Positions 2,743 to 60,662 of a DNA stretch of 64,000 nucleotides are shown here, piece by piece; the first letter of the stretch is position 1, and every line of letters starts with the position of its first letter. The translations under genes and the position numbers were made by a program. The stretch is taken from the NCBI RefSeq assembly GCF_051105105.1, contig NZ_CP185339.1, one strand, 5' to 3'. The DNA comes from Nannocystis pusilla. GTDB taxonomy: Bacteria > Myxococcota_A > Polyangia > Nannocystales > Nannocystaceae. The notes under the pieces are model-generated. The model worked only from the letters and a program-made list of their open reading frames with translations. It was not told where the DNA came from and ran no database searches.

Positions 2743-3564
2743 TCAGCCGATCTGGGCGTTGGCGATCCGGTGGACCAGCCAGAACAGGTTGGGGCCGTGG
2801 CGGTCGGGCAGCTCGCGCTTGACCGCGCGGAGGCTGTCGCACAGCTGCTCGAGGCCGCGGTCGAGGACGGCGGCGCGGCGGGCCTCGAGGCGCTGGCCGA
2901 CGCCGATCGGCTGCCAGCTGGTGCCCCACGGGATCGCCCAGGTCAGCACGCGGTCGCCCGCGCGCAGGGCCTGCGACAGGTTGCTGTCGGTGAGGGTGAC
3001 GGGCTCGTCGCGCAGCAGGTCCTTGCCGCGCACGCGCTGCTTGCCGGGGTTCACGTCGTCGACGGCGACCAGCAGCAGGCGCGCCTGCAGGCAAGCGTCG
3101 AGGGCGGCGCGCTGGCGGCCCTCGAGCGGCACGCCGGCGCTGGTGAACATGTCGACCAGGCGGATGCCCTTGGGGTCGCGGTAGCCGTACAGGCAGAACG
3201 TCTGGGCGGCGCGGCGCAGGTCGGCGTTGTTCTTCTCGGCCGGCGTGGCGCCGCCGAAGAAGCCGTTCATCACCTGGGCGACGAACGGACCGAACCGCCG
3301 GGTGGCGAAGCTGCCCAGCATCGACTCGACGCGCTCGAAGTCGGCGCGCTCGTAGCGGCCGAACTTGGGGGTGAGCGGTCGCTCGTTCGTCAGCGCCGCC
3401 GCGGGGGCCGGATTGCGCGCGCGAGCGGCCTCCTGGGCCTGCGCGATCTCCTGCTCGGCGGTGAGGAACGGGCCGGTGCCACGACGCTTGCGCCGGGAGT
3501 CCGAGCGGGGCGTCGACGCGGCGGGCGGGGCTGCAGTGCCGGGTTGTTCGGGTGTGTCGGTCAT
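2743..3564 (-). CDS. hypothetical cytoplasmic protein (disordered Arg/Lys-rich N-terminus); last gene of a four-gene lipoprotein operon
   Basis: Within ORF 2743..3789-, Met (MTDTPEQPGT...) at 3564 overlaps the stop of the upstream gene by 4 nt (ATGA). Upstream of that Met the ORF is Arg-rich junk. No family recognised. Confidence 0.5.
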   Translation of the reverse strand: MTDTPEQPGTAAPPAASTPRSDSRRKRRGTGPFLTAEQEIAQAQEAARARNPAPAAALTNERPLTPKFGRYERADFERVESMLGSFATRRFGPFVAQVMNGFFGGATPAEKNNADLRRAAQTFCLYGYRDPKGIRLVDMFTSAGVPLEGRQRAALDACLQARLLLVAVDDVNPGKQRVRGKDLLRDEPVTLTDSNLSQALRAGDRVLTWAIPWGTSWQPIGVGQRLEARRAAVLDRGLEQLCDSLRAVKRELPDRHGPNLFWLVHRIANAQIG

Positions 3565-4914
3565 GGGTCCGTCATTTCGGCGCACGCGCCGTCGAAGGCG
3601 ATCCGCGGCAGCTCGATGGCCAGGCTCGCGTTCGGAGCGGTCGGCGTCGGGTCGTCGCCGTTGCCGTAGCACGGCTCGTCGGAGCCGGCGGCGTACGCCT
3701 CGATGCGCACGTACAGCTCCTCGTGGGCCATCGGCGCGTCGTCCCACACCAGCGGCTCGATGTCGCGGATCTTGCCGAGTTCGTCGCAAGGGACGGTGGT
3801 GACGCCGTCGAGCACGATCGGCGGGTTCTGGCCGTCACGCAGGGCGGCCGTCGGGACGACCTGGAGGTCGGCGTCGAGGACGGTGATCCGCGCGCGGTCG
3901 ATCACGAGGCCCGGCTCCGGAGTGCACGTCGTGAAGGGCAGCTCGTCGGGGCCGCTGAGGAGCGCCAGCGAGAACGAGAAGCCGGCCTCGATCGGCGCGA
4001 GGAAGCTGGCGATCGTGAAGTCGGCGAACAGGTCGACGCTCTGGAAGCCCTCCGGCACCAGCGTGAAGGACGTGACGTCGGCGTCGAGCATGGGCACGGC
4101 GAGCTTTTTGCCGTTCGCGCCGAGGCCGGCGACCGAGAGGGTGTAATCGCCCGGATCGAGCGACTCGGTGAAGGTCTGGGCGGTGGTGGTGCAGGGGAAG
4201 CGGAGCTTCTTGGCGGTCGGCCCGTCGATCGCCACCTCGATGTCGGTGAGCGCGAGGCCGCCGCAGAAGGCGCTCGGGTTGCCGCTCATGAGCTCCGGAC
4301 GGACGACGAGCTGAGCGCCGGCGCTGTCGCCGACCTCGAGGCCGGCGCGATCGCCCGCGCAGGACGGGTCGGCGAGGTCGGTGTAGCCGTCGCGGTCGTT
4401 GTCGATGCCGTCGCTGCACTGCGGGGCGCCGACGATGACGACGTTCGAGCGGCTTGCCCTCGCCGGCCGCGCTGATCACAACGTCCTGGGCGGTGGAGGC
4501 GAGGACCTTCTTGCAGGAGGTGTCGACCTCACTGCCGTCGGTGTCGACGACGCTGGTGGGCTCGTCGGCGCAGAACTGGACGTCGCGCCGGCCTAGCGCG
4601 GTGACCGTGACGCTGTACGTGCCGGCGCCCACCTCCGGCCCGGGCGCGCGGGCGTCTTGGTCCTCGAAGCCGGCGGGGAAGCACGGGAACTCGCGCTCGT
4701 CGAGCAGGGCGTTGCCCCCGTCGCGGGTGCTGACGCGGATCCGGCTGATGCCGAGCTCCGTGCACTGATCGACCGAGACGAGCTCGGCGGCGTCGCTGAC
4801 CTCGGCCTGGTCGAGCGGCTGCAGGCGCCAGCGGACCCAGAAGCTGGGGTCCTCCGCGCAGCCGGCCGCGGCGACGGTCGCGAGCGCGAGGGGAGCGAGG
4901 CGGGCGCGGAGCAT
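3561..4914 (-). pseudogene. lipoprotein with CarboxypepD_reg-like beta-sandwich repeats and a CxDGxDNDxDGxxDxxDxxC motif; reading frame broken by a 1-nt indel near 4443
   Basis: The N-terminal half reads in the frame of ORF 3835..4950- (MLRARLAPLALATVAAAGC lipobox; ...VISAAGEGKPLE). The C-terminal half reads in the frame of ORF 3561..4289-, which is open back to a stop at 4476-4478 (...VVIVGAPQCSDGIDNDRDGYTDLADPSCAGDRAG...). The join is at about 4443. Motifs LRPGTY / VGAGTYSVTV / LDPGDYTLSV recur. Confidence 0.5.
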
Positions 4915-13454: not shown

Positions 13455-15281
13455 ATGGCCGGCCTGGCCGGTCTGGCGCTGGCGGGCGCGCTGCTGGCGG
13501 CCGGGCGCGGGGCGCTGATCGAGGCGGCATCGGTCGAGCCGTTCCGCGTCGAGGTCGCAAGCCCGCACGCGCCGGCGGCGGACGGGCGCTGGTCGGGGCG
13601 TGTGGTCCCGCCGGAGCTGGCGGCGCGGGCGGTGGTGCGGGTCGACGGGGAGATTCGCGGCGGTCCTGAGGGACATGCGCAAAGGGACATGTCCGGAGAG
13701 GGGCAGGTGGTCGAGCGCCGGACGCCAGTGGCCGGTCCTTCAGGGCATGTTCGAGAGGACATGCTCTATGGCGCAGCCAGTGATGCGAGCGACGGGCAGC
13801 GCAGCGCCGAAGGACATGGCCTCGGAGACAGGTCGGATGGGGCGCTGTCGGTCGCGCTGGGCGACGCGCCGGGGCTGCGGCTGATCGAGGTCGAGCTGCC
13901 GCGCCAGGGCGGGGCCGAGGTGGTGACCGACGCGGCGCTGGTCGGGCCGTTCCGCGCCCGCTACGACGACTCGCCGGGCTGCGGCGCGGGGGTGCGGGTG
14001 GCGGCGAGGGCGATCGATCGGCTGGTGCTGCCGCCGCTGCGCGACAAGCTGCTGGCGGCGGCGCCGTCGATCGGGCTGCTCGGGCCGGGGACGACGCTCG
14101 AGGAGGCGAGCGTGACGCTGCGGGGCGACGCGCTGTGGTTCCGCGTGGCGCTGGCCGGCGAGCACCGGATCGCGGTGTCGGGGGCGCTCAAGGTGCGGGT
14201 GGCCGGGCCGCGCCAGCTCGGCGTGCGCCTGGCCTCGCTCGGGCCGGTCGAGTTCACGGGCACGCTGCGCACGCGGGCGACGCTCGGCGCGGCGGGGCTC
14301 GGGGCGCTCGTGACGGGGCCATTGGCGCCGCTCGGGGCGCTGGCCGGCTACGCGCTGGCCGACGGCTACATCGATCGGCGCGCGCGACAGGAGGTCGAGA
14401 CGCAGCTGACCGCGGCCCTGGCGGTGGCCAGCGCGATCCCGCTGATCCCCGAGCGCGCCGAGCTGATCGTCGGCGAGCCGCGCTCGCGGGCGACGCTGGC
14501 GTTCTGCGCGGTGGCCATCGAGTCGGGCGGGATCGCGGCGCACCTGTCCGTACGGCCCGATAAACCTGACCCGAAGACCAGCCAGGAGGCGAGCCGGGTG
14601 CGCACGCGGCTCGCGGCGATCCCGGGGCCGGCGCGGCACGGGCTCGAGCTGCCGCCGCTGCGGCCGGTGGCGCCGACGGCCGACGCGGAGGTCGAGCTGA
14701 GCCTCGACACGGTCGACGCGCTGCTCGACGCGTGGACCGCCAACGGCCTGCTCGGCGACCTGATGGGGCGGGCGCAGTGGGTCGAGCGGGTCGACGAGGC
14801 GCTCGGTGAGTGGACGACGCTCGGCTTGGCGGAGATTGAGGTCCGGCTGCCGCCGTCGCTGTCCCCGGGGACAGGTGACGGCTGGGCCTTGACTGTCGCG
14901 GGGCTGCGCCTGGGGCTGACCGGCAGCGAGGGCGAGGACCCCGGGGAGGTGCTGGTCGCGGGGCGCGGGGTCGTGCGCCCGCACTACGACGCGACGCGCG
15001 GGCGGCTGGCGCTGTCGGGCACGATCGACCGCCTGCGCCTGTCGTGCGCCCGCGCGGGAGCGCTGTGGCCGTGCTTCGGCGCGCTGCTCGAGATGGGCAA
15101 CGTCGAGGCTCGGCTCGACGCGCTGCTGGCCCCGGGCGCCGCCGGGCTGCCGGGGATCGAGGTGCGGGCGCTGCTCCGCGACGGCACGCGAGCGCTGCGC
15201 GACGGCGGGCTGGAGCTGGCCGATCTGGCGATCAGCTATCCACAGCCGGGCGTGCTGCGGGTCGCGGCCGAGGTGCGCTGA
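13455..15281 (+). CDS. hypothetical membrane-anchored protein (possible partner of the ABC transporter); contains an in-frame repeat cluster
   Basis: ORF-track 13419..15281. N-terminal TM segment MAGLAGLALAGALLAAG. Residues encoded at 13665-13835 derive from the CATG-palindrome repeat (EGHAQRDMSGEGQ...HVREDMLYGA...). No family recognised. Start is uncertain. Confidence 0.35.
   Translation: MAGLAGLALAGALLAAGRGALIEAASVEPFRVEVASPHAPAADGRWSGRVVPPELAARAVVRVDGEIRGGPEGHAQRDMSGEGQVVERRTPVAGPSGHVREDMLYGAASDASDGQRSAEGHGLGDRSDGALSVALGDAPGLRLIEVELPRQGGAEVVTDAALVGPFRARYDDSPGCGAGVRVAARAIDRLVLPPLRDKLLAAAPSIGLLGPGTTLEEASVTLRGDALWFRVALAGEHRIAVSGALKVRVAGPRQLGVRLASLGPVEFTGTLRTRATLGAAGLGALVTGPLAPLGALAGYALADGYIDRRARQEVETQLTAALAVASAIPLIPERAELIVGEPRSRATLAFCAVAIESGGIAAHLSVRPDKPDPKTSQEASRVRTRLAAIPGPARHGLELPPLRPVAPTADAEVELSLDTVDALLDAWTANGLLGDLMGRAQWVERVDEALGEWTTLGLAEIEVRLPPSLSPGTGDGWALTVAGLRLGLTGSEGEDPGEVLVAGRGVVRPHYDATRGRLALSGTIDRLRLSCARAGALWPCFGALLEMGNVEARLDALLAPGAAGLPGIEVRALLRDGTRALRDGGLELADLAISYPQPGVLRVAAEVR
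13665..13835. repeat. CATG-palindrome repeat cluster lying in-frame inside ORF 13455..15281
   Basis: GAGGGACATGCGC, AAAGGGACATGTCCGGAG, CAGGGCATGTTCGAG, GAGGACATGCTCTATGG, GAAGGACATGGCCTCGGAGACAGGTC. Confidence 0.65.
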
Positions 15282-30881: not shown

Positions 30882-33101
<2,220 letters not shown>

Positions 33102-37082: not shown

Positions 37083-38130
37083 ATGTCGTCGGTTCCGACC
37101 CAGATCGGCCCCTACAAGGTCAAAGGCCTCGTCGGCAAGGGGGCCATGGGGGAGGTCTATGAGGGCGTCGACGCCGGTCTCGGCCGGCGGGTGGCGATCA
37201 AGATCCTCGGCAAGAAGCACCGCGAGTCCGAGGAGTTCAAGACGCGGTTCCTCCGCGAGGGCAAGGCCCTGGCGCAGATGAATCACCCCAACGTGGTGGC
37301 GGTGTACTTCATCGGCGAGCACGAGGACCGGCCCTTCCTGGCGATGGAGTTCCTCGACGGCGAGGACATCGGCGCGATGCTGAAGAAGCGGGGCGCGCTG
37401 CACCCGGGCGACGCGGCGGAGGTCATCCGCCAGGCGGCGATCGGGCTCGCCGAGACCCAGCGAGTGGGCGTCGTACACCGCGACGTGAAGCCGTCGAACC
37501 TGGTCGTGACGTTCGACGGGCATCGTCAAGGTGACCGACTTCGGCCTGGCCAAGGCGCTGCAAGAGGACCTGTCGATCACCGCCACCGGCGTGTTCGTCG
37601 GCACGCCCGACTACCTCGCGCCCGAGCAGGCGATGGGCAAGGAGGTCGACGCCCGCGCCGACGTTTATGCGCTCGGCTGCTCGCTGTTTCACATGTGCAG
37701 CGGTCACCCGCCGTTCCGCAAGGGCGGCCAGGACGACCACTACACCGCGGTGGTGCGCCGCCACCTGCGTTCGGAGCGGCCGGAGCTCAAGTACGAGATC
37801 AAGGGCTTCGACGAGGCGCTGTCCGACCTGTGCCGGCGCATGATGAGCCGCCGCCCCGACGTGCGCCCGTCCTTCGAGGAGCTCAAGGTCGGCCTCACCG
37901 AGATCTCGAAGCGCCTCGGCGGGCAGGTGCCCCCGCGTCACGCCGACGTGGAGCTGCGCTCGCCCGAGGAGATCAGCGAGAAGATCCGGCAGGAGCAGAA
38001 GAAGACGCCGCCCGGCGCGGCGCCCGGCTCGCCGCCGAGCGGGGCGACGCGGACGACGATGATCGCGGTCGGCATCGGCGTGACGATCGGCATCGCCCTC
38101 GGCGTTGTGCTGGCCGTGATGAGCCTGTAG
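37083..38130 (+). pseudogene. Ser/Thr protein kinase with C-terminal transmembrane tail; frameshifted in a GGG run at about 37518-37521
   Basis: Kinase subdomains I-VIb in the ORF 37083 frame (GKGAMGEVY, AIK, HRDVKPSNLVV). Subdomains VII-XI in the ORF 37531 frame (VTDFGLAKAL, GTPDYLAPE), ending in the TM segment MIAVGIGVTIGIALGVVLAVMSL. The frames join only if GGGC becomes GGC (FDG/IVKVTDFG). Confidence 0.7.
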
Positions 38131-38968: not shown

Positions 38969-39025
38969 GGCATGCTCGAAAGCGCATGTCCGAAGGGGCA
39001 TGCGCGAAGGGGCATGTCTGAGCGA
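38969..39025. repeat. CATG-palindrome repeat cluster after punA
   Basis: GCATGCTCGAAAG, CGCATGTCCGAAGG, GGCATGCGCGAAGG, GGCATGTCTGAGCGAA. Confidence 0.7.
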
Positions 39026-48637: not shown

Positions 48638-49640
48638 CTACTTCGCCGGCTTGCGGCCGATCTCGAGGTCGTAGGCGGTGGCGGGGTCGACCGCGCCGGG
48701 CTTCAGGAGGCCGAGGTCGACGAGCTGGTCGGCGAGCGTCTTCCAGCGGGCTGGGTCGATCGCGCCGAGCGTGCCGCCTTCAGGGGCCGCCAGCGGCTTG
48801 AGGGCGGCGGCGCCCTTGGCCAGGATCTCGGGGCTGAGCTCGGTGTTGCGGGCGCGGATCTCGGCGTTGGCGGCGCTCGAGTCGCGCAGGTACTGCTCCC
48901 ACCCGCGCAGGGTCGCTGCGACGACGCGGGCGACCAGCTCGGGGCGGCTCGCCAGCAGCGACTCGGAGGTGACGAGGACGCTGGCGTAGGGGTTGAAGCC
49001 GAGGTCGGCGACGAGGATGCAGCGGACCTTGGCGCCCTGCGACTCGGCGATGATCGGCTCGCTGAAGACGTAGGCCTGCTGGACGGCCTTGGGGTCGAGC
49101 AGGAACGGGGCGACGCTGCCGCTGTAGGGGACGATCTGGACCGCCTCGGGCCAGCGGTACTGGGCGCGCAGGAAGCTGGCGAACGGCTCGCGCACGCTCA
49201 GCTGCACGCTGCCGCTCTGGAGGTCCTTGAGGTCGGTGATGCCCGAGGCCTCGTGGACCATCATGCAGCGCGGGCTCTTCTGCAGGCCGGGGACGAGCGC
49301 GACTATCGGGGCGCCCTGGGCCCGCGCGAGCAGGATCTCGCTGGCGTCGGCGACACCGAAGTCGACGCGACCTGCGGCAACCTGCGGCAGCACCGGGGCG
49401 TCCGGCCGCCCGGGCACGAGCTCGAACGTCGAGGCCCTCTTCCTTGTAGTAGCCGTGGACGAGGGCGGCGAAGTAGCCGCCGTGCTCGACCTCGGGGAAC
49501 CAGTTGAGGGCGATCCGCACCTGCTGCGAGTCCTGCGGGCGGCCGCACGTGACGAGCAGCAAGCCGAGGCAGGCGACGAGCAGGCGGACGAGGGCGCCGA
49601 ACCGCGGGCGCGGCGGGACCGGTCGGAGCGGAGCGCGCAT
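48638..49640 (-). pseudogene. NMT1/SsuA-like ABC substrate-binding lipoprotein; frameshifted near 49430
   Basis: The N-terminus (MRAPLRPV...LLVTC lipobox; RIALNWFPEVEHGGYFAALVHGYYKEEGLDV) is in the frame of ORF 48780..49874-. The remainder (ELVPGRPDAPVLPQVAAGRVDFGVAD...) is in the frame of ORF 48638..49756-. A 1-nt change at about 49430 (AA run) rejoins them. Confidence 0.6.
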
Positions 49641-52927: not shown

Positions 52928-52998
52928 AGGGGCATGCTCGCAAGAGCATGTCCGCGAGGGCATGAAGGATGGGGCATGTCGGATGCGACATGCGCGAA
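52928..52998. repeat. CATG-palindrome repeat cluster (convergent intergenic, HxlR / ABC permease)
   Basis: GGGGCATGCTCGCAAGAGCATGTCCGCGAGGGCATGAAGGATGGGGCATGTCGGATGCGACATGCGCGAAAGG. Confidence 0.7.
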
Positions 52999-53001
52999 AG
53001 G

Positions 53002-55840: not shown

Positions 55841-57662
55841 ATGCGTCCCCGCGCCGCTGCGTCCGCTGCCGAGCCCGCGCGTCGTTGTGGCCAACGTCCC
55901 GGCGCGGGCCTGCGCCGGATCGGGCTCGGGTGCGTGGCCGTCGCGCTCGCTTGCGGACCGGGCGAGCAGAAGGCGCAGAAGGTCGAGGCGAACCCGAACA
56001 TGCCCGACCGGGTGCAAGCGCCCGCGCCCGCGCCGCGCCGGCCGGAGATCACGGACTGCCCCGAGGCGCTCCGCGAGCCCGAGCAGGTCGACCGCGTGAT
56101 CGGCTCGGCCTGCAAGTCGGTGACGGTCCACCCGGGCTACCGCGTCGAGAACGGGTCGCTGACGATCGAGGCCGGGGTGACCCTGCAGTTCATGCCCGGC
56201 GCCGAGCTGGCGGTCGGCTTCGAGCGCCCGGCGACGCTGCATGTGCGCGGCACGCCCGAGTCGCCGGTCCGCTTCACGGCCGCGGGCGATCAGGCCAAGC
56301 CGGGGGCGTGGAAGGGGATCGCGCTGTACGACCACGCCGACGGCTCGGAGATCGCCGGGCTCGTGCTCGAGTTCGCCGGCACCGACCTGCGCGGGGCGAT
56401 CTACGTGCAGGCGACCGACGTGAAGATCGACGGCTCGACGGTGCGCGACAGCCAGAACGTGGCGGTCCACGTCACGTCGAAGGGCCACGTCAGCAGCTTC
56501 AAGGGCAACCGGCTCGAGCGCGTGAGCTCGCCGGCGCTGCTGCTGCCAGCCCGCTCGGCCGGGTCGGTGACGCCCGACAACACGTTCCCGCCCGACTCGG
56601 TGATCCACGTGCTCGGCGGGGCGATCCGCGACCGCGCCCGCTGGGACGTGCCGAAGGTGCCGTTCGTGATCGGCGGGGTGATCGAGATCGAGGGCCCCGA
56701 CGACAAGCACGAGGCGATGCTCGAGCTGGCGCCGGGGACAGTCCTGAAGTTCGACGACGACGCGTACTTCACCGTCGGCTACGACCACCCGGCGGCGCTC
56801 ATCGCCGAGGCGGCGGGCAAGGAGCCGATCGTGCTGACGTCGGCGACGCGCCAGAACGTCGCACGCGTGGCGCGGGGTCAACCTCTACCGCTCGGCCAGC
56901 GCGAGCTTCAGCAACGTGGTGTTCGAGTACGGCGGCCAGCGCTCCGACCGCGGGGTGGTCTACGCCAACAACGAGGCGCGCCTCAGCGCGAAGGGCTGCA
57001 CGTTCCGCGACAACGGCGGCGGCGTGACGCTCCAGGGCGCGAACGTCCGCCTCGGCGAGTTCCGCGACAACACGTTCGAGCGCTCGCACCCGGCCTTCGA
57101 CGTGAGCCCGCAGCTGTTCGGGATGATCCCGGCCGAGAACAAGCTCGACGCCGCGACGACGGTCCAGGTCGAGGGCGGCGAGGTCAGCAAGGACGCGGTG
57201 TGGCACGACTTCGGGGTGCCGATCGAGGTCAAGCGCCCGGTCTGGGTCGACAACCAGGCGACGCTGACGATCCGCGCCGGCGCCAAGCTGCGCGTCCACG
57301 ACGGCTTCTCGCTCGGGGTCGGCGAGTTCGGCGGCGGCTCGCTGCGCGTCGAGGGCACGGCCGAGCGCCCGGTGCAGATCTTCGGGACCACCGACCGCCG
57401 CGGGACGTGGGACGCGATCCGGCTGTACGAGAAGGCCCGCGGCAACCTGTTCGAGCACGTGCAGCTGCGCAACGCCGGCGGCGAGGGGGCGATCAACGTC
57501 GCCATGGGGGTCGACGCGGTCGTCCGCGACGTGTCCTGCGTGCGCTGCTTCAGCCCGACGCTGACATGGGCCTGCGGCTCGCGCGTGACGTCCGAGCGCG
57601 TCGCGGGCGGGGCCGAGACGCCGGCGGCGACGCTGCCGCCGTTCGGCTGCGACCCGGCCTGA
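55841..57662 (+). pseudogene. secreted lipoprotein with beta-helix-like repeats; frameshifted in a GGGG run near 56871
   Basis: LGCVAVALACGPG lipobox in the frame of ORF 54797..57709 up to ...TSATRQNVARVARG. It continues in the frame of ORF 56916..57662 (VNLYRSASASFSNVVFEYGGQ...). Removing one G at 56871-56874 joins the frames. Confidence 0.45.
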
Positions 57663-57811: not shown

Positions 57812-57885
57812 GAGCATGTCGACAGGGACATGCTCGGAAGGGCATGCCCTGAAGAGCATGTTCTTCGAGTCATGGCCGTGAGGGC
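57812..57885. repeat. CATG-palindrome repeat cluster overlapping the 3' end of the STK-TPR gene
   Basis: GAGCATGTC-GACAGG-GACATGCTC hairpin, AGGGCATGCCCT palindrome, AAGAGCATGTTCTTCGAG. Confidence 0.7.
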
Positions 57886-60620
57886 AGGTGTGTCCGCGGG
57901 CCGGTGCGGGTCAGCAGGCGCTCGCTGGCGGCCAGCTGGCGGGCGAAGCTGGCGCCGGCGCTGCGGTAGAAGGCGAGCGCGGCCCCGAGGTGCGGGCGGG
58001 CGGCGGCCACGGCGGGCGGCGTGGCGGTCAGCAGGGCCTCGGCGAGGGTGCGGTGGGCGCGAGCGAGGCGCGGGGCCCAGTGCGGGTCGTCGGCGGCGAG
58101 GACGGTGAGCTCGGCGACGGCCGCGGCCAGCGGGACGCGGGCCTCGAGCGGCCGGCCGCGGACGAGCAAGTTCTGGCCGAGGACCAGGCGCAGCTCGGCG
58201 ATCTCCTCGCTCGACCAGGTGGCGTCGGGCATGCGCGCGAGGGTGGCCTGGAGGTGCTCGACGGCGGTGTTGTCGTCGACCAGGCCGGCGAGGCCGCGAT
58301 AGCCGGCGAGCAGGGTCGCCTCGGGCCCGAACAGGCGCGTGCCGGACAGCTCCGACAGCTCGGCGGCGGCGCGGAAGACCGAGGCGGCGTCGTCGTCGTC
58401 GCCGATCTCGGTGGCGGCGCGGCCGAGGTGGAACAGGCACCGCGTGCGACGCACGAGGTCGTCGGGCAAGAACCGCTCGAGGGCGACGCAGCCGGCCTGG
58501 AGGATCGACCAGGCCTCGCCGGGCTCGGCCAGCTGGGCGGCGGTGATCCGCGCCTCGATCGTGGCAGGGTGGACGACGCCGAGCTCGGCGTCGAAGATCT
58601 CGAGGGCGCGCGCGAGGAGGTCGTCGCGCGCGGCGCCCGGATCGGTGACGGCGGCGAGGTTGAGGAGGGTGTAGCCAACGTCGCGGTGGCCGGCCGACAG
58701 GGCGCCCTGGCGCACGCTCAGGGCCTCGGTGAAGTAGCGCCGCGCCTCGGAGGTGTTGCGCTGGGCGAGGTTGGCGACGCCGAGGTTGTGCAGGACGAGG
58801 CCGCGCAGGGCCTCGGGGGCGGCGCCGCGAGAGGCGAGGGCGAGGGCGAGGGGCTCGTCGGCGAGGGCGCGAGCGACCATCTCGGGCCGGCGACTGGCGG
58901 CGACGATCCGCGAGGCCACGGCCTCGGCCGCGATCGCGTCGCCGCGCGACTCGATGCCGCTGCGCATGGCCCGGGTCGACCACTCGAGCTCCTGGCCGGT
59001 CTCCTCGGAGGTGTTGAGCGAGAGCCGCCCGCGCAGCAGCGCGACCTCGGCGCGTAGCGGGGCGTAGCCGATCTGCTCGGCGGCGGCTTCGATGTCGGCG
59101 GCCTGATCGACCGCGTCGTGGATCCGCCCGAGCTTGGCCAGCGCCTCGGCCCGCGCCATGTGGTTGCGCAGGTCGGCGACGCGCTCGCCGAGCTCGGGGT
59201 CGTCGGGCGCCGGCGGCTCGGCCTTGAGGAAGGCGAGCTCGTGGCAGGCGGAGGGCGGGACGAGATCGCTGGCGGCGCCGAGCGCCCGCGGGGCCATGTC
59301 CATGTCGGCGATCGACAGGGCCTTGACGGTCTCGTCGAAGGCGTCGCGCCGACGATCGAGGCAGCGGCGCTGGCGATCGAGCAAGGCCTCGGTGTAGCGG
59401 CCCTGGTGCTCGGCGAGACAGGTGTCGCGGTGGTTCTCGGCCCACGAGGCGGCGAAGCGGTCGAGCTTGTCGGCGACCCTGGGCCACAGCACCGCGGCGT
59501 AGTTGGGCGCCGCGTCGCGCAAGGCCGTGGCGACGGCGTTGCGCTGGGCCGGGCCCCACACGCGGGCGATGTCGGCGTCGGCGTCGGCGCACGGCGACTC
59601 GGCGGCGGCCTCGGGCACGAACGCGAGGCCGGCGGCGCCGGCGGTGAGGGCCAGCGCCAGGGCGGCGCCGACGAACCGCCAGGTCCGCCCGCGCGACGGG
59701 ACGAGCGCGCCGAGCAGCGCCTCCATCGACGGGTAGCGGTCGCGCGGCTCGGTCTTGAGGCCGCGCATGAGCGCGGCGATGAGCCACGCGGGCACGCCAT
59801 GGTTGCGCGGCGGAGGCCGCAGGTGGCCGTTGGTGATCGCGTGCGAGAGCGCGAGGATGTCGTTGCCGGCGAACGGCGGCAGGCCGAACAGGGCCTCGTA
59901 GAGGGCGACGCAGAAGCTGAACTGATCGGAAGCCGGCTCGGCCGCGCCGCCGCGCCAGCGCTCGGGCGCGAGATAAGCGGGGGTGCCGAGGATGTCCTCG
60001 CCGTCGTCGCCGACGCGGATCCGCATGCTCTGGCTGGCGCCCGAGGACAGGTCGAGCAGGCCCGGACGATCGGGGGTGGCGCGCACGAGCCCGAAGTCGA
60101 GGACACAGGCGCGGCCGGTGGCGTCGATCATGACGTTGCCGGGCTTGAAGTCGCGGTGCAGGAGGCCCACCTCGTGGGCGGCGGCGAGGCCTCGCGCGGC
60201 CTGGGTGAACACGTCGTGGATCTCGCGCCAGGTCCGCGGCCCGGCGGCCAGCCAGGCCGGCAGCGCGGCGCCGCGGATCAGCTCCATGGCGACGTAGACC
60301 TGGCCCTTGATGACCCCGGCCTCGAGCACGGTGATGACATTGGGGTGGCTGACGCCCGCCATCGCCTGGGCCTCGCGCAGCAGCCGGATCTGGCCCTTCG
60401 ACCCGGTGTCGGGCAGGACCTTGATCGCGACCTTGCGGTCGAGGAGCTCGTCGTAAGCGGCGTAGACGACCGCCGTGCCGCCGCCGAGGCGCTCGAGGAT
60501 GGTGAACCGACCGAGCCGCGGAGGCAGGATCGCAGGGACCGAGATCGCGACACCAGGCAGCGACTGCGTGATGTCCACCGAGATCCCCGACGCGTCCGTA
60601 TCGGGAATGATGACGCTCAT
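57870..60620 (-). CDS. Ser/Thr protein kinase with large C-terminal TPR/helical-repeat domain
   Basis: Kinase motifs (GGGTAVVYAAYD, AIK, HRDFKPGNVMI, DFGLV, GTPAYLAPE), one TM segment and about 550 aa of TPR-like repeats. Start at the internal ATG 60620. ORF-track 57870..60662 (TTG). Confidence 0.8.
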   Translation of the reverse strand: MSVIIPDTDASGISVDITQSLPGVAISVPAILPPRLGRFTILERLGGGTAVVYAAYDELLDRKVAIKVLPDTGSKGQIRLLREAQAMAGVSHPNVITVLEAGVIKGQVYVAMELIRGAALPAWLAAGPRTWREIHDVFTQAARGLAAAHEVGLLHRDFKPGNVMIDATGRACVLDFGLVRATPDRPGLLDLSSGASQSMRIRVGDDGEDILGTPAYLAPERWRGGAAEPASDQFSFCVALYEALFGLPPFAGNDILALSHAITNGHLRPPPRNHGVPAWLIAALMRGLKTEPRDRYPSMEALLGALVPSRGRTWRFVGAALALALTAGAAGLAFVPEAAAESPCADADADIARVWGPAQRNAVATALRDAAPNYAAVLWPRVADKLDRFAASWAENHRDTCLAEHQGRYTEALLDRQRRCLDRRRDAFDETVKALSIADMDMAPRALGAASDLVPPSACHELAFLKAEPPAPDDPELGERVADLRNHMARAEALAKLGRIHDAVDQAADIEAAAEQIGYAPLRAEVALLRGRLSLNTSEETGQELEWSTRAMRSGIESRGDAIAAEAVASRIVAASRRPEMVARALADEPLALALASRGAAPEALRGLVLHNLGVANLAQRNTSEARRYFTEALSVRQGALSAGHRDVGYTLLNLAAVTDPGAARDDLLARALEIFDAELGVVHPATIEARITAAQLAEPGEAWSILQAGCVALERFLPDDLVRRTRCLFHLGRAATEIGDDDDAASVFRAAAELSELSGTRLFGPEATLLAGYRGLAGLVDDNTAVEHLQATLARMPDATWSSEEIAELRLVLGQNLLVRGRPLEARVPLAAAVAELTVLAADDPHWAPRLARAHRTLAEALLTATPPAVAAARPHLGAALAFYRSAGASFARQLAASERLLTRTGPRTHLPSRP

Positions 60621-60662
60621 GGGACTCGACCAGTCTTGCACCGACCCGCACACACGCCCCAA

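Follow-up and report, generated by a model that had tools for sequence, protein, structure and literature searches.

The question raised by this locus is whether a conserved Ser/Thr kinase gene, which begins at position 37083 and appears as two open reading frames, is broken in the organism or only in the sequence deposited for it. The gene was analysed within the window, by which we mean the whole stretch of 64,000 nucleotides of Nannocystis pusilla DNA that was examined. The initial annotation had regarded both frames as parts of a single kinase gene parted between subdomains VIb (HRD) and VII (DFG), had attributed the split to a miscounted GGG run, and had predicted a tail-anchored membrane protein once the frame was repaired.

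The existence of one split gene and the assignment of the frames were borne out. In the frame of the ATG at 37083 (frame 0) the N-lobe and the catalytic loop are encoded as far as HRDVKPSNLVVT, followed by (FDG), and the +1 frame reads (ST)GIVKVTDFGLAKAL and carries STGIVKVTDFGLAKAL and the following residues to a TAG stop at 38128-38130. Past HRDVKPSNLVVT, what follows in frame 0, up to 38288, is out of frame and low in GC3. Along the gene, GC3 stays at 0.90-1.00 in frame 0 as far as about 37500 and at 0.93-1.00 in frame +1 beyond it, with a clean switch between 37500 and 37560; taken over their whole lengths, codons 1-143 (37083-37511), read in one frame, and codons 144-348 (37513-38127), read in another, each have a GC3 of about 0.95. 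The upstream half matches positions 1-132 of the Pfam Pkinase profile (PF00069) and the downstream half positions 137-257, and since these are adjacent segments of the profile the halves represent adjacent parts of one domain. As deposited, the gene has no uninterrupted frame, the break lying at 37512/37513, and removal of one T restores it.

The position of the lesion differs from that originally proposed. The range given for it (37512-37524) includes the true site, but the indel is not at the GGG run and was misplaced by six bases. DNA alignment with eight related Nannocystis genome sequences locates a single extra T at 37512/37513 (ACG-T-TCG), the window having GTGACG-T-TCGACGGGC and the relatives GTGACGTCGAC(C/G)GGC. 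The extra T is found in none of these eight sequences and in none of three metagenome contigs, all of which read GACGTC. Degenerate pattern scans accepting either allele over 185,579 species genomes and the JGI metagenomes matched five Nannocystis species genomes and three metagenome contigs, all lacking the extra base, and recovered the extra-T allele nowhere else.

These alignments bear directly on the proposal of a homopolymer-length error, namely one G too many at 37518-37520. Homopolymer errors are the commonest long-read artefact, they are present in other Nannocystis assemblies, and deletion of one G does restore an open frame. The repair of GGGC to GGC, however, writes VVT-FD-GIVKV at the junction where the closest intact orthologues have VVT-ST-G-IVKVTDFG; although more distant orthologues differ in the residue pair that precedes the invariant Gly, F-D occurs there in 0 of 16 aligned orthologues, and the +1 frame, which is open already from 37509 and reads R-S-T-G-I-V-K-V, supplies S-T-G without any such repair. 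The orthologues compared are intact single-frame kinases. Every DNA alignment places the gap at TT and not at GGG, and the N. pusilla relatives carry the same ACGGGC in an intact, unshifted kinase gene. In the long-read N. pusilla assemblies L003 (GCA_049060185.1) and L013 (strain Na p29, GCA_026626665.1) the errors are numerous deletions of a single base in homopolymers (G, C, A or T) at least four long, which split dnaB, pth, the H+-pyrophosphatase (H+-PPase) gene, S18, SNF2 and others. No homopolymer-length error of this type was found in the window, whose anomalies lie only at GACGTC. A miscounted GGG run is thus refuted as the mechanism, the extra base being a T inside a GACGTC palindrome. 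P0098, a public protein, represents this same kinase with two frameshifts.

Table 1. Positions in the window of the kinase gene and its parts, and of the altered GACGTC sites in this and other genes.
Feature	Position	Strand	Details
Ser/Thr kinase gene, whole	37083..38130	+	1048 nt including the extra T and TAG; without the T 1047 nt = 348 codons + stop
Kinase, upstream part	37083..37511	+	codons 1-143 (M...HRDVKPSNLVVT); G-loop GKGAMG 18-23, VAIK 37-40, HRD 132-134 (nt 37476-37484)
Extra-base site GACGTTC	37508..37514	+	extra T at 37512 or 37513 (equivalent placements); palindrome GACGTC in all relatives
GGG run	37518..37520	+	ACG (Thr145; synonymous with ACC in N. exedens) then GGC (Gly146); not the indel site
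Kinase, downstream part	37513..38127	+	codons 144-348, +1 frame (STGIVKVTDFG...); DFG 152-154 (nt 37537-37545), APE 179-181
C-terminal hydrophobic helix	38056..38127	+	residues 325-348, MIAVGIGVTIGIALGVVLAVMSL; essentially no residues beyond
Lipoprotein gene	3561-4914	-	lesion GACGTTC at 4440..4446 (relatives GACGTC); repaired 450 aa; intact orthologues 445-452 aa
NMT1/THI5-type ABC substrate-binding protein gene	48638-49640	-	GAACGTC at 49424..49430 (relatives GACGTC); repaired 333 aa; P0121 intact, 333 aa, 96%
Beta-helix repeat protein gene	55934-57662	+	GAACGTC at 56854..56860 (relatives GACGTC); orthologue in L023 (2009-3736) intact, 575 aa
Window-private GACGTC>AACGTC/GACGTT	4480, 7370, 9748, 24299, 27087, 29785, 31599, 37660, 55893, 58677		
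H+-pyrophosphatase Asp238>Asn (DNVGDNVG[D>N])	31599..31604	+	AACGTC; GACGTC in all relatives; third Asp of DNVGDNVGD

With the T removed, the gene encodes a protein of 348 residues that is 99% identical to its best match, P0001 of N. exedens (348 aa), and whose downstream part is 99.5% identical to the N. pusilla orthologue. The repaired protein scores 180.1 bits against Pkinase PF00069 (cut-off 31.7), compared with 93.4 and 73.6 bits for the halves, and has all the Hanks motifs (GKGAMG at 18, VAIK at 37, HRD at 132, DFG at 152 and APE at 179). More than 5000 homologues were found for the joined protein, and among the best 120 are numerous intact ones, 339-356 aa long, whose sources are Nannocystis, Enhygromyxa, Paraliomyxa and uncultured Nannocystaceae. 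The gene has the same neighbours, dnaB on one side and a purine-nucleoside phosphorylase gene on the other, in the window, in N. exedens and in the two N. pusilla assemblies examined for this.

The proposed membrane anchor was upheld by the hydropathy of the repaired protein. A single stretch at the C-terminus, residues 323-348 of 348, exceeds a Kyte-Doolittle 19-residue mean of 1.6, with a peak of 2.62; the tail is conserved in 16 of 16 aligned orthologues and is shared by the intact orthologues of 339-356 aa. A proline- and charge-rich linker of about 55 residues separates the kinase domain from this lone, extreme C-terminal helix, and there is neither an N-terminal signal peptide nor another membrane segment. 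At the level of sequence, these features support a Hanks-type, RD-class Ser/Thr kinase that is predicted to be a tail-anchored membrane protein. The closest solved structures to the catalytic domain are those of Mycobacterium tuberculosis PknB and PknA (PDB 3orm, 1mru, 4ow8), which it resembles over residues 10-276 (E = 4e-48) with all the Hanks motifs and an RD-type loop; unlike them, the window kinase has no extracellular PASTA or sensor domain, and its membrane helix lies at the extreme C-terminus and not mid-protein. Membership of the PknB/Stk1 PASTA kinases (NCBIfam NF033483, PknB_PASTA_kin) was rejected, as the score of 264 bits is below the cut-off of 450, the match covers the kinase domain only and the protein ends after the helix. 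No NCBIfam model reached its cut-off, and no named equivalog could be assigned. The kinase adds a new member to a well-known family, and its gene is very probably intact.

The window (72% G+C) is closest to two N. pusilla assemblies (L013 and L014), at about 97.6% nucleotide identity, and is 94-97% identical to N. exedens DSM 71. In the collections searched, exact look-ups of three window proteins (PNP, the purine-nucleoside phosphorylase; a 401-aa ORF; and HxlR) gave no match, and those of S6 and L9 yielded only relatives at 95-99.5% identity. The dN/dS of the kinase gene is 0.022 overall and 0.03 downstream of the break, where 11 synonymous changes stand against 1 non-synonymous change; these values are indistinguishable from that of the adjoining DnaB (0.025).

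Other broken genes were sought by tblastn of the closest relatives' proteins against the window over 1-13.4 kb and 24.7-57.7 kb (about 46 kb, 43 genes), and candidate frame switches beyond the kinase were flagged by a GC3 frame scan of the whole 64 kb. Four of the 43 genes compared are split, those of a lipoprotein, the kinase, an NMT1-type ABC substrate-binding protein and a beta-helix repeat protein, and the other 39 are unbroken. The scan candidates at about 7619 and about 48215 were discarded as frameshifts, being antisense or ordinary gene boundaries. On repair the four proteins measure 450, 348, 333 and 575 aa, and each has an intact orthologue of the same length; for the lipoprotein these include P0241 (94%, 450 aa), and N. 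exedens P0244 is likewise intact (447 aa). In all four genes the frame-breaking indel is a +1 insertion by which GACGTC, the ancestral form, became GAACGTC or, on the complementary strand, GACGTTC. The chance that four of four random insertions would fall at GACGTC is about 1e-9 to 1e-13, or about 3e-7 when the first case is discounted and a correction is made for all hexamer palindromes. Where GAACGTC or GACGTTC occurs naturally at other places in the window, the relatives have it too. The four broken genes are under purifying selection in the relatives (dN/dS 0.02-0.38), and no decay was seen after the breaks, each gene regaining its exact orthologue length on removal of one base.

Substitutions accumulate at the same palindrome. 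About 40 ancestral GACGTC sites were recognised, of which 20 are unchanged, 4 carry an insertion and 16 a substitution, and at 5 further sites GACGTC is peculiar to the window. Of the 16 substitutions, ten are private to the window and identical in kind, consisting of G>A at position 1 (AACGTC) or, on the other strand, C>T at position 6 (GACGTT), so that about 14 of 40 sites (about 35%) are altered either by insertion or by this stereotyped change. With the window's own rate of private G>A/C>T changes, which is 0.39% per G/C position, as the background, about 0.3 such changes would be expected in 80 positions (P about 1e-12), and even with a generous background of 1% the P for ten changes is about 9e-9; for the concentration of the four frame-breaking indels and the ten G>A changes at GACGTC, P is at most 1e-8. 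A global excess of private substitutions was considered and dismissed: the 130 found in 16.4 kb are unremarkable, most of them at GC3, and only 2 of this filtered set lie in GACGTC. Since the private changes are otherwise ordinary, the anomaly is specific to the motif and does not reflect a global drop in quality. Pairwise comparison of other Nannocystis genomes revealed no similar pattern at GACGTC but only ordinary synonymous GTC/GTG turnover, and no significant flanking-base rule distinguished affected from unaffected sites (Fisher p = 0.13).

Five of the ten G>A changes are synonymous (GTC>GTT), four are non-synonymous and one is intergenic; the reading frames were computed for seven of them, and two of the synonymous changes (24299 and 58677) and the intergenic one (55893) were placed manually with the ORF coordinates. 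Each of the four non-synonymous changes replaces Asp by Asn at a position that does not vary among the relatives available (ExbD D77N, Tricorn-like D360N, ribosomal protein L25 D93N and H+-PPase D238N). The H+-PPase residue aligns with Asp287 of the Vigna radiata membrane pyrophosphatase, which together with one other Asp coordinates the water molecule in the catalytic step (PMC9405524), and the remainder of the H+-PPase gene is 98.6% identical to its orthologue. Selection seems not to have acted on the G>A changes, as synonymous and non-synonymous ones stand at roughly the 1:1 expected in its absence.

Stereotyped changes confined to one 6-bp palindrome, affecting about one third of its sites, blind to selection and shared with no relative, argue for a systematic base-calling or consensus error and not for evolution. 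We therefore favour, with a probability of about 0.85, the reading that the kinase gene is intact and that its extra T is a systematic consensus error at a methylated GACGTC, probably in a native-DNA long-read assembly. A sequencing or assembly cause, which the initial annotation had already had in mind, thus stands as the likeliest, in the form of a motif-specific set of changes. From the error pattern we infer that the strain would have an AatII-type methyltransferase producing G(m6A)CGTC, whose modified adenine would disturb base calling: G-m6A read as A-A would give the substitution AACGTC, and G-m6A read as G-A-A would give the insertion GAACGTC, or GACGTTC on the other strand. The error would be kept in the consensus at about one third of the sites, and in the kinase gene its insertion form, falling between HRD and DFG, would split the frame.

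M.AatII methylates the adenine of GACGTC (PMC3287169), and this adenine is the base duplicated in the insertions and the neighbour of the miscalled G in the substitutions. The recognition sequence is that of the AatII system, although an AatII-type enzyme in this strain is suggested by the error pattern only, no methyltransferase or restriction gene having been seen within the 64-kb window. Methylation motifs dominate nanopore consensus errors, of which polishing clears only 70-80% (PMC6591954); both methylation-linked G>A and A>G miscalls and motif-bound error-prone sites in assemblies are on record (PMC11610603; bioRxiv 10.64898/2026.01.14.699587), as are strand-specific miscalls at 6mA/5mC motifs (PMC11610603). 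The window resembles such native-DNA cases, for example Dcm CCWGG (Wick et al. 2019, PMC6591954; PMC11610603), in the single short motif, the partial occupancy of sites, the survival of polishing, the G>A bias and the accuracy of the rest of the assembly. It differs from them in the motif itself, GACGTC, in that 4 of the 14 changes are one-base insertions creating frameshifts, and in that the native long-read platform, the methylation of GACGTC and the origin of the insertions alongside the substitutions are deduced here from the pattern; the literature on methylation-linked nanopore errors that we consulted deals mainly with substitutions or unspecified motif errors, and no explicit one-base insertions at m6A were found in it.

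The principal competitor to a consensus error is a genuine and very recent frameshift that made the kinase a fresh pseudogene through a real, lineage-specific mutational process at GACGTC. A mechanistically conceivable route would be self-restriction of the AatII type followed by end-joining with a one-nucleotide fill-in, GACGTT and AACGTC arising by deamination of methylated cytosine. Specificity for a motif suits a site-specific enzyme as well as a site-specific error. AatII cuts GACGT^C, and the inserted base sits at that cleavage position. Moreover, the 12-30-fold excess of C>T at position 6 would be of the size known for 5mC hot spots. Against a consensus error it may also be held that only about 35% of the GACGTC sites are affected, with no clear flanking rule, and that the assembly is generally accurate and otherwise devoid of homopolymer errors. 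Like a genuine frameshift pseudogene, the kinase gene is conserved yet divided into two overlapping ORFs by an indel of one base. The kinase departs from such pseudogenes, however, in that constraint is not relaxed, that the allele occurs in no relative and no metagenome contig, and that one motif is lesioned in four genes and also substituted at invariant residues. Furthermore, 4 of 43 comparable genes, all under purifying selection in the relatives, would have been broken without secondary decay downstream of any break, the substitutions are unfiltered by selection (5 synonymous, 4 non-synonymous) and destroy a catalytic Asp of the H+-PPase, and extrapolation of about 10% frameshifted GACGTC sites to a genome of about 12 Mb would imply several hundred broken genes. 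A real mutational origin is therefore improbable. Its more specific version, in which both the insertions and the G>A changes are scars of restriction-modification autoimmunity (cleavage at GACGT^C, end-joining fill-in and deamination of the methylated base), appears more improbable still; if true, it would constitute a natural record of hundreds of rewritten sites, with about 8-10% of the genes knocked out.

The perfect coding signature in both halves would also be compatible with programmed +1 ribosomal frameshifting or another form of recoding, or with halves that work as separate polypeptides. Yet the shift occurs in no orthologue, all of them being single-frame, and the site is not a conserved recoding site; ACG-UUC-GAC offers no slippery heptamer, stop codon or rare A-site codon. 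The recurrence of the lesion at GACGTC in three unrelated genes points to a cause at the level of DNA or of base calling. Separate function is opposed by the position of the cut, between HRD and DFG, which leaves a complete active site in neither half. Programmed frameshifting is excluded, and to this group of explanations as a whole we give the least credence of all.

The split of the kinase gene is thus real in the deposited sequence, and its cause is most likely not biological. As biology, the kinase is an ordinary, conserved Hanks-type enzyme, and the practical value of the case lies in quality control. In the window, four genes that look like pseudogenes and at least four seeming Asp>Asn variants trace to GACGTC; annotation, pseudogene counts, variant calls and inferences on enzyme function drawn from this assembly need correction at that motif, and frameshift findings from the same genome should be weighed jointly and not singly. 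The pattern also predicts an active G(m6A)CGTC methyltransferase in the strain.

Two further observations concern other parts of the window. A 14-nt unit, GCATGYNCGAARGG, is present in four tandem copies directly after the stop codon of the purine-nucleoside phosphorylase (PNP) gene (38970-39024) and recurs between genes elsewhere, at 52932-53000 and, as a single copy each, at 13745 and 48616. With 13 matches where 6.4 would be expected its enrichment is weak, and it may represent a small family of intergenic repeats. On the minus strand at 57870-60662 there is another Ser/Thr kinase gene, far larger than the first (about 916-930 aa); its orthologue in L023 combines a Pkinase domain with TPR repeats, and the GACGTC>AACGTC site that it contains, at 58677, is synonymous.
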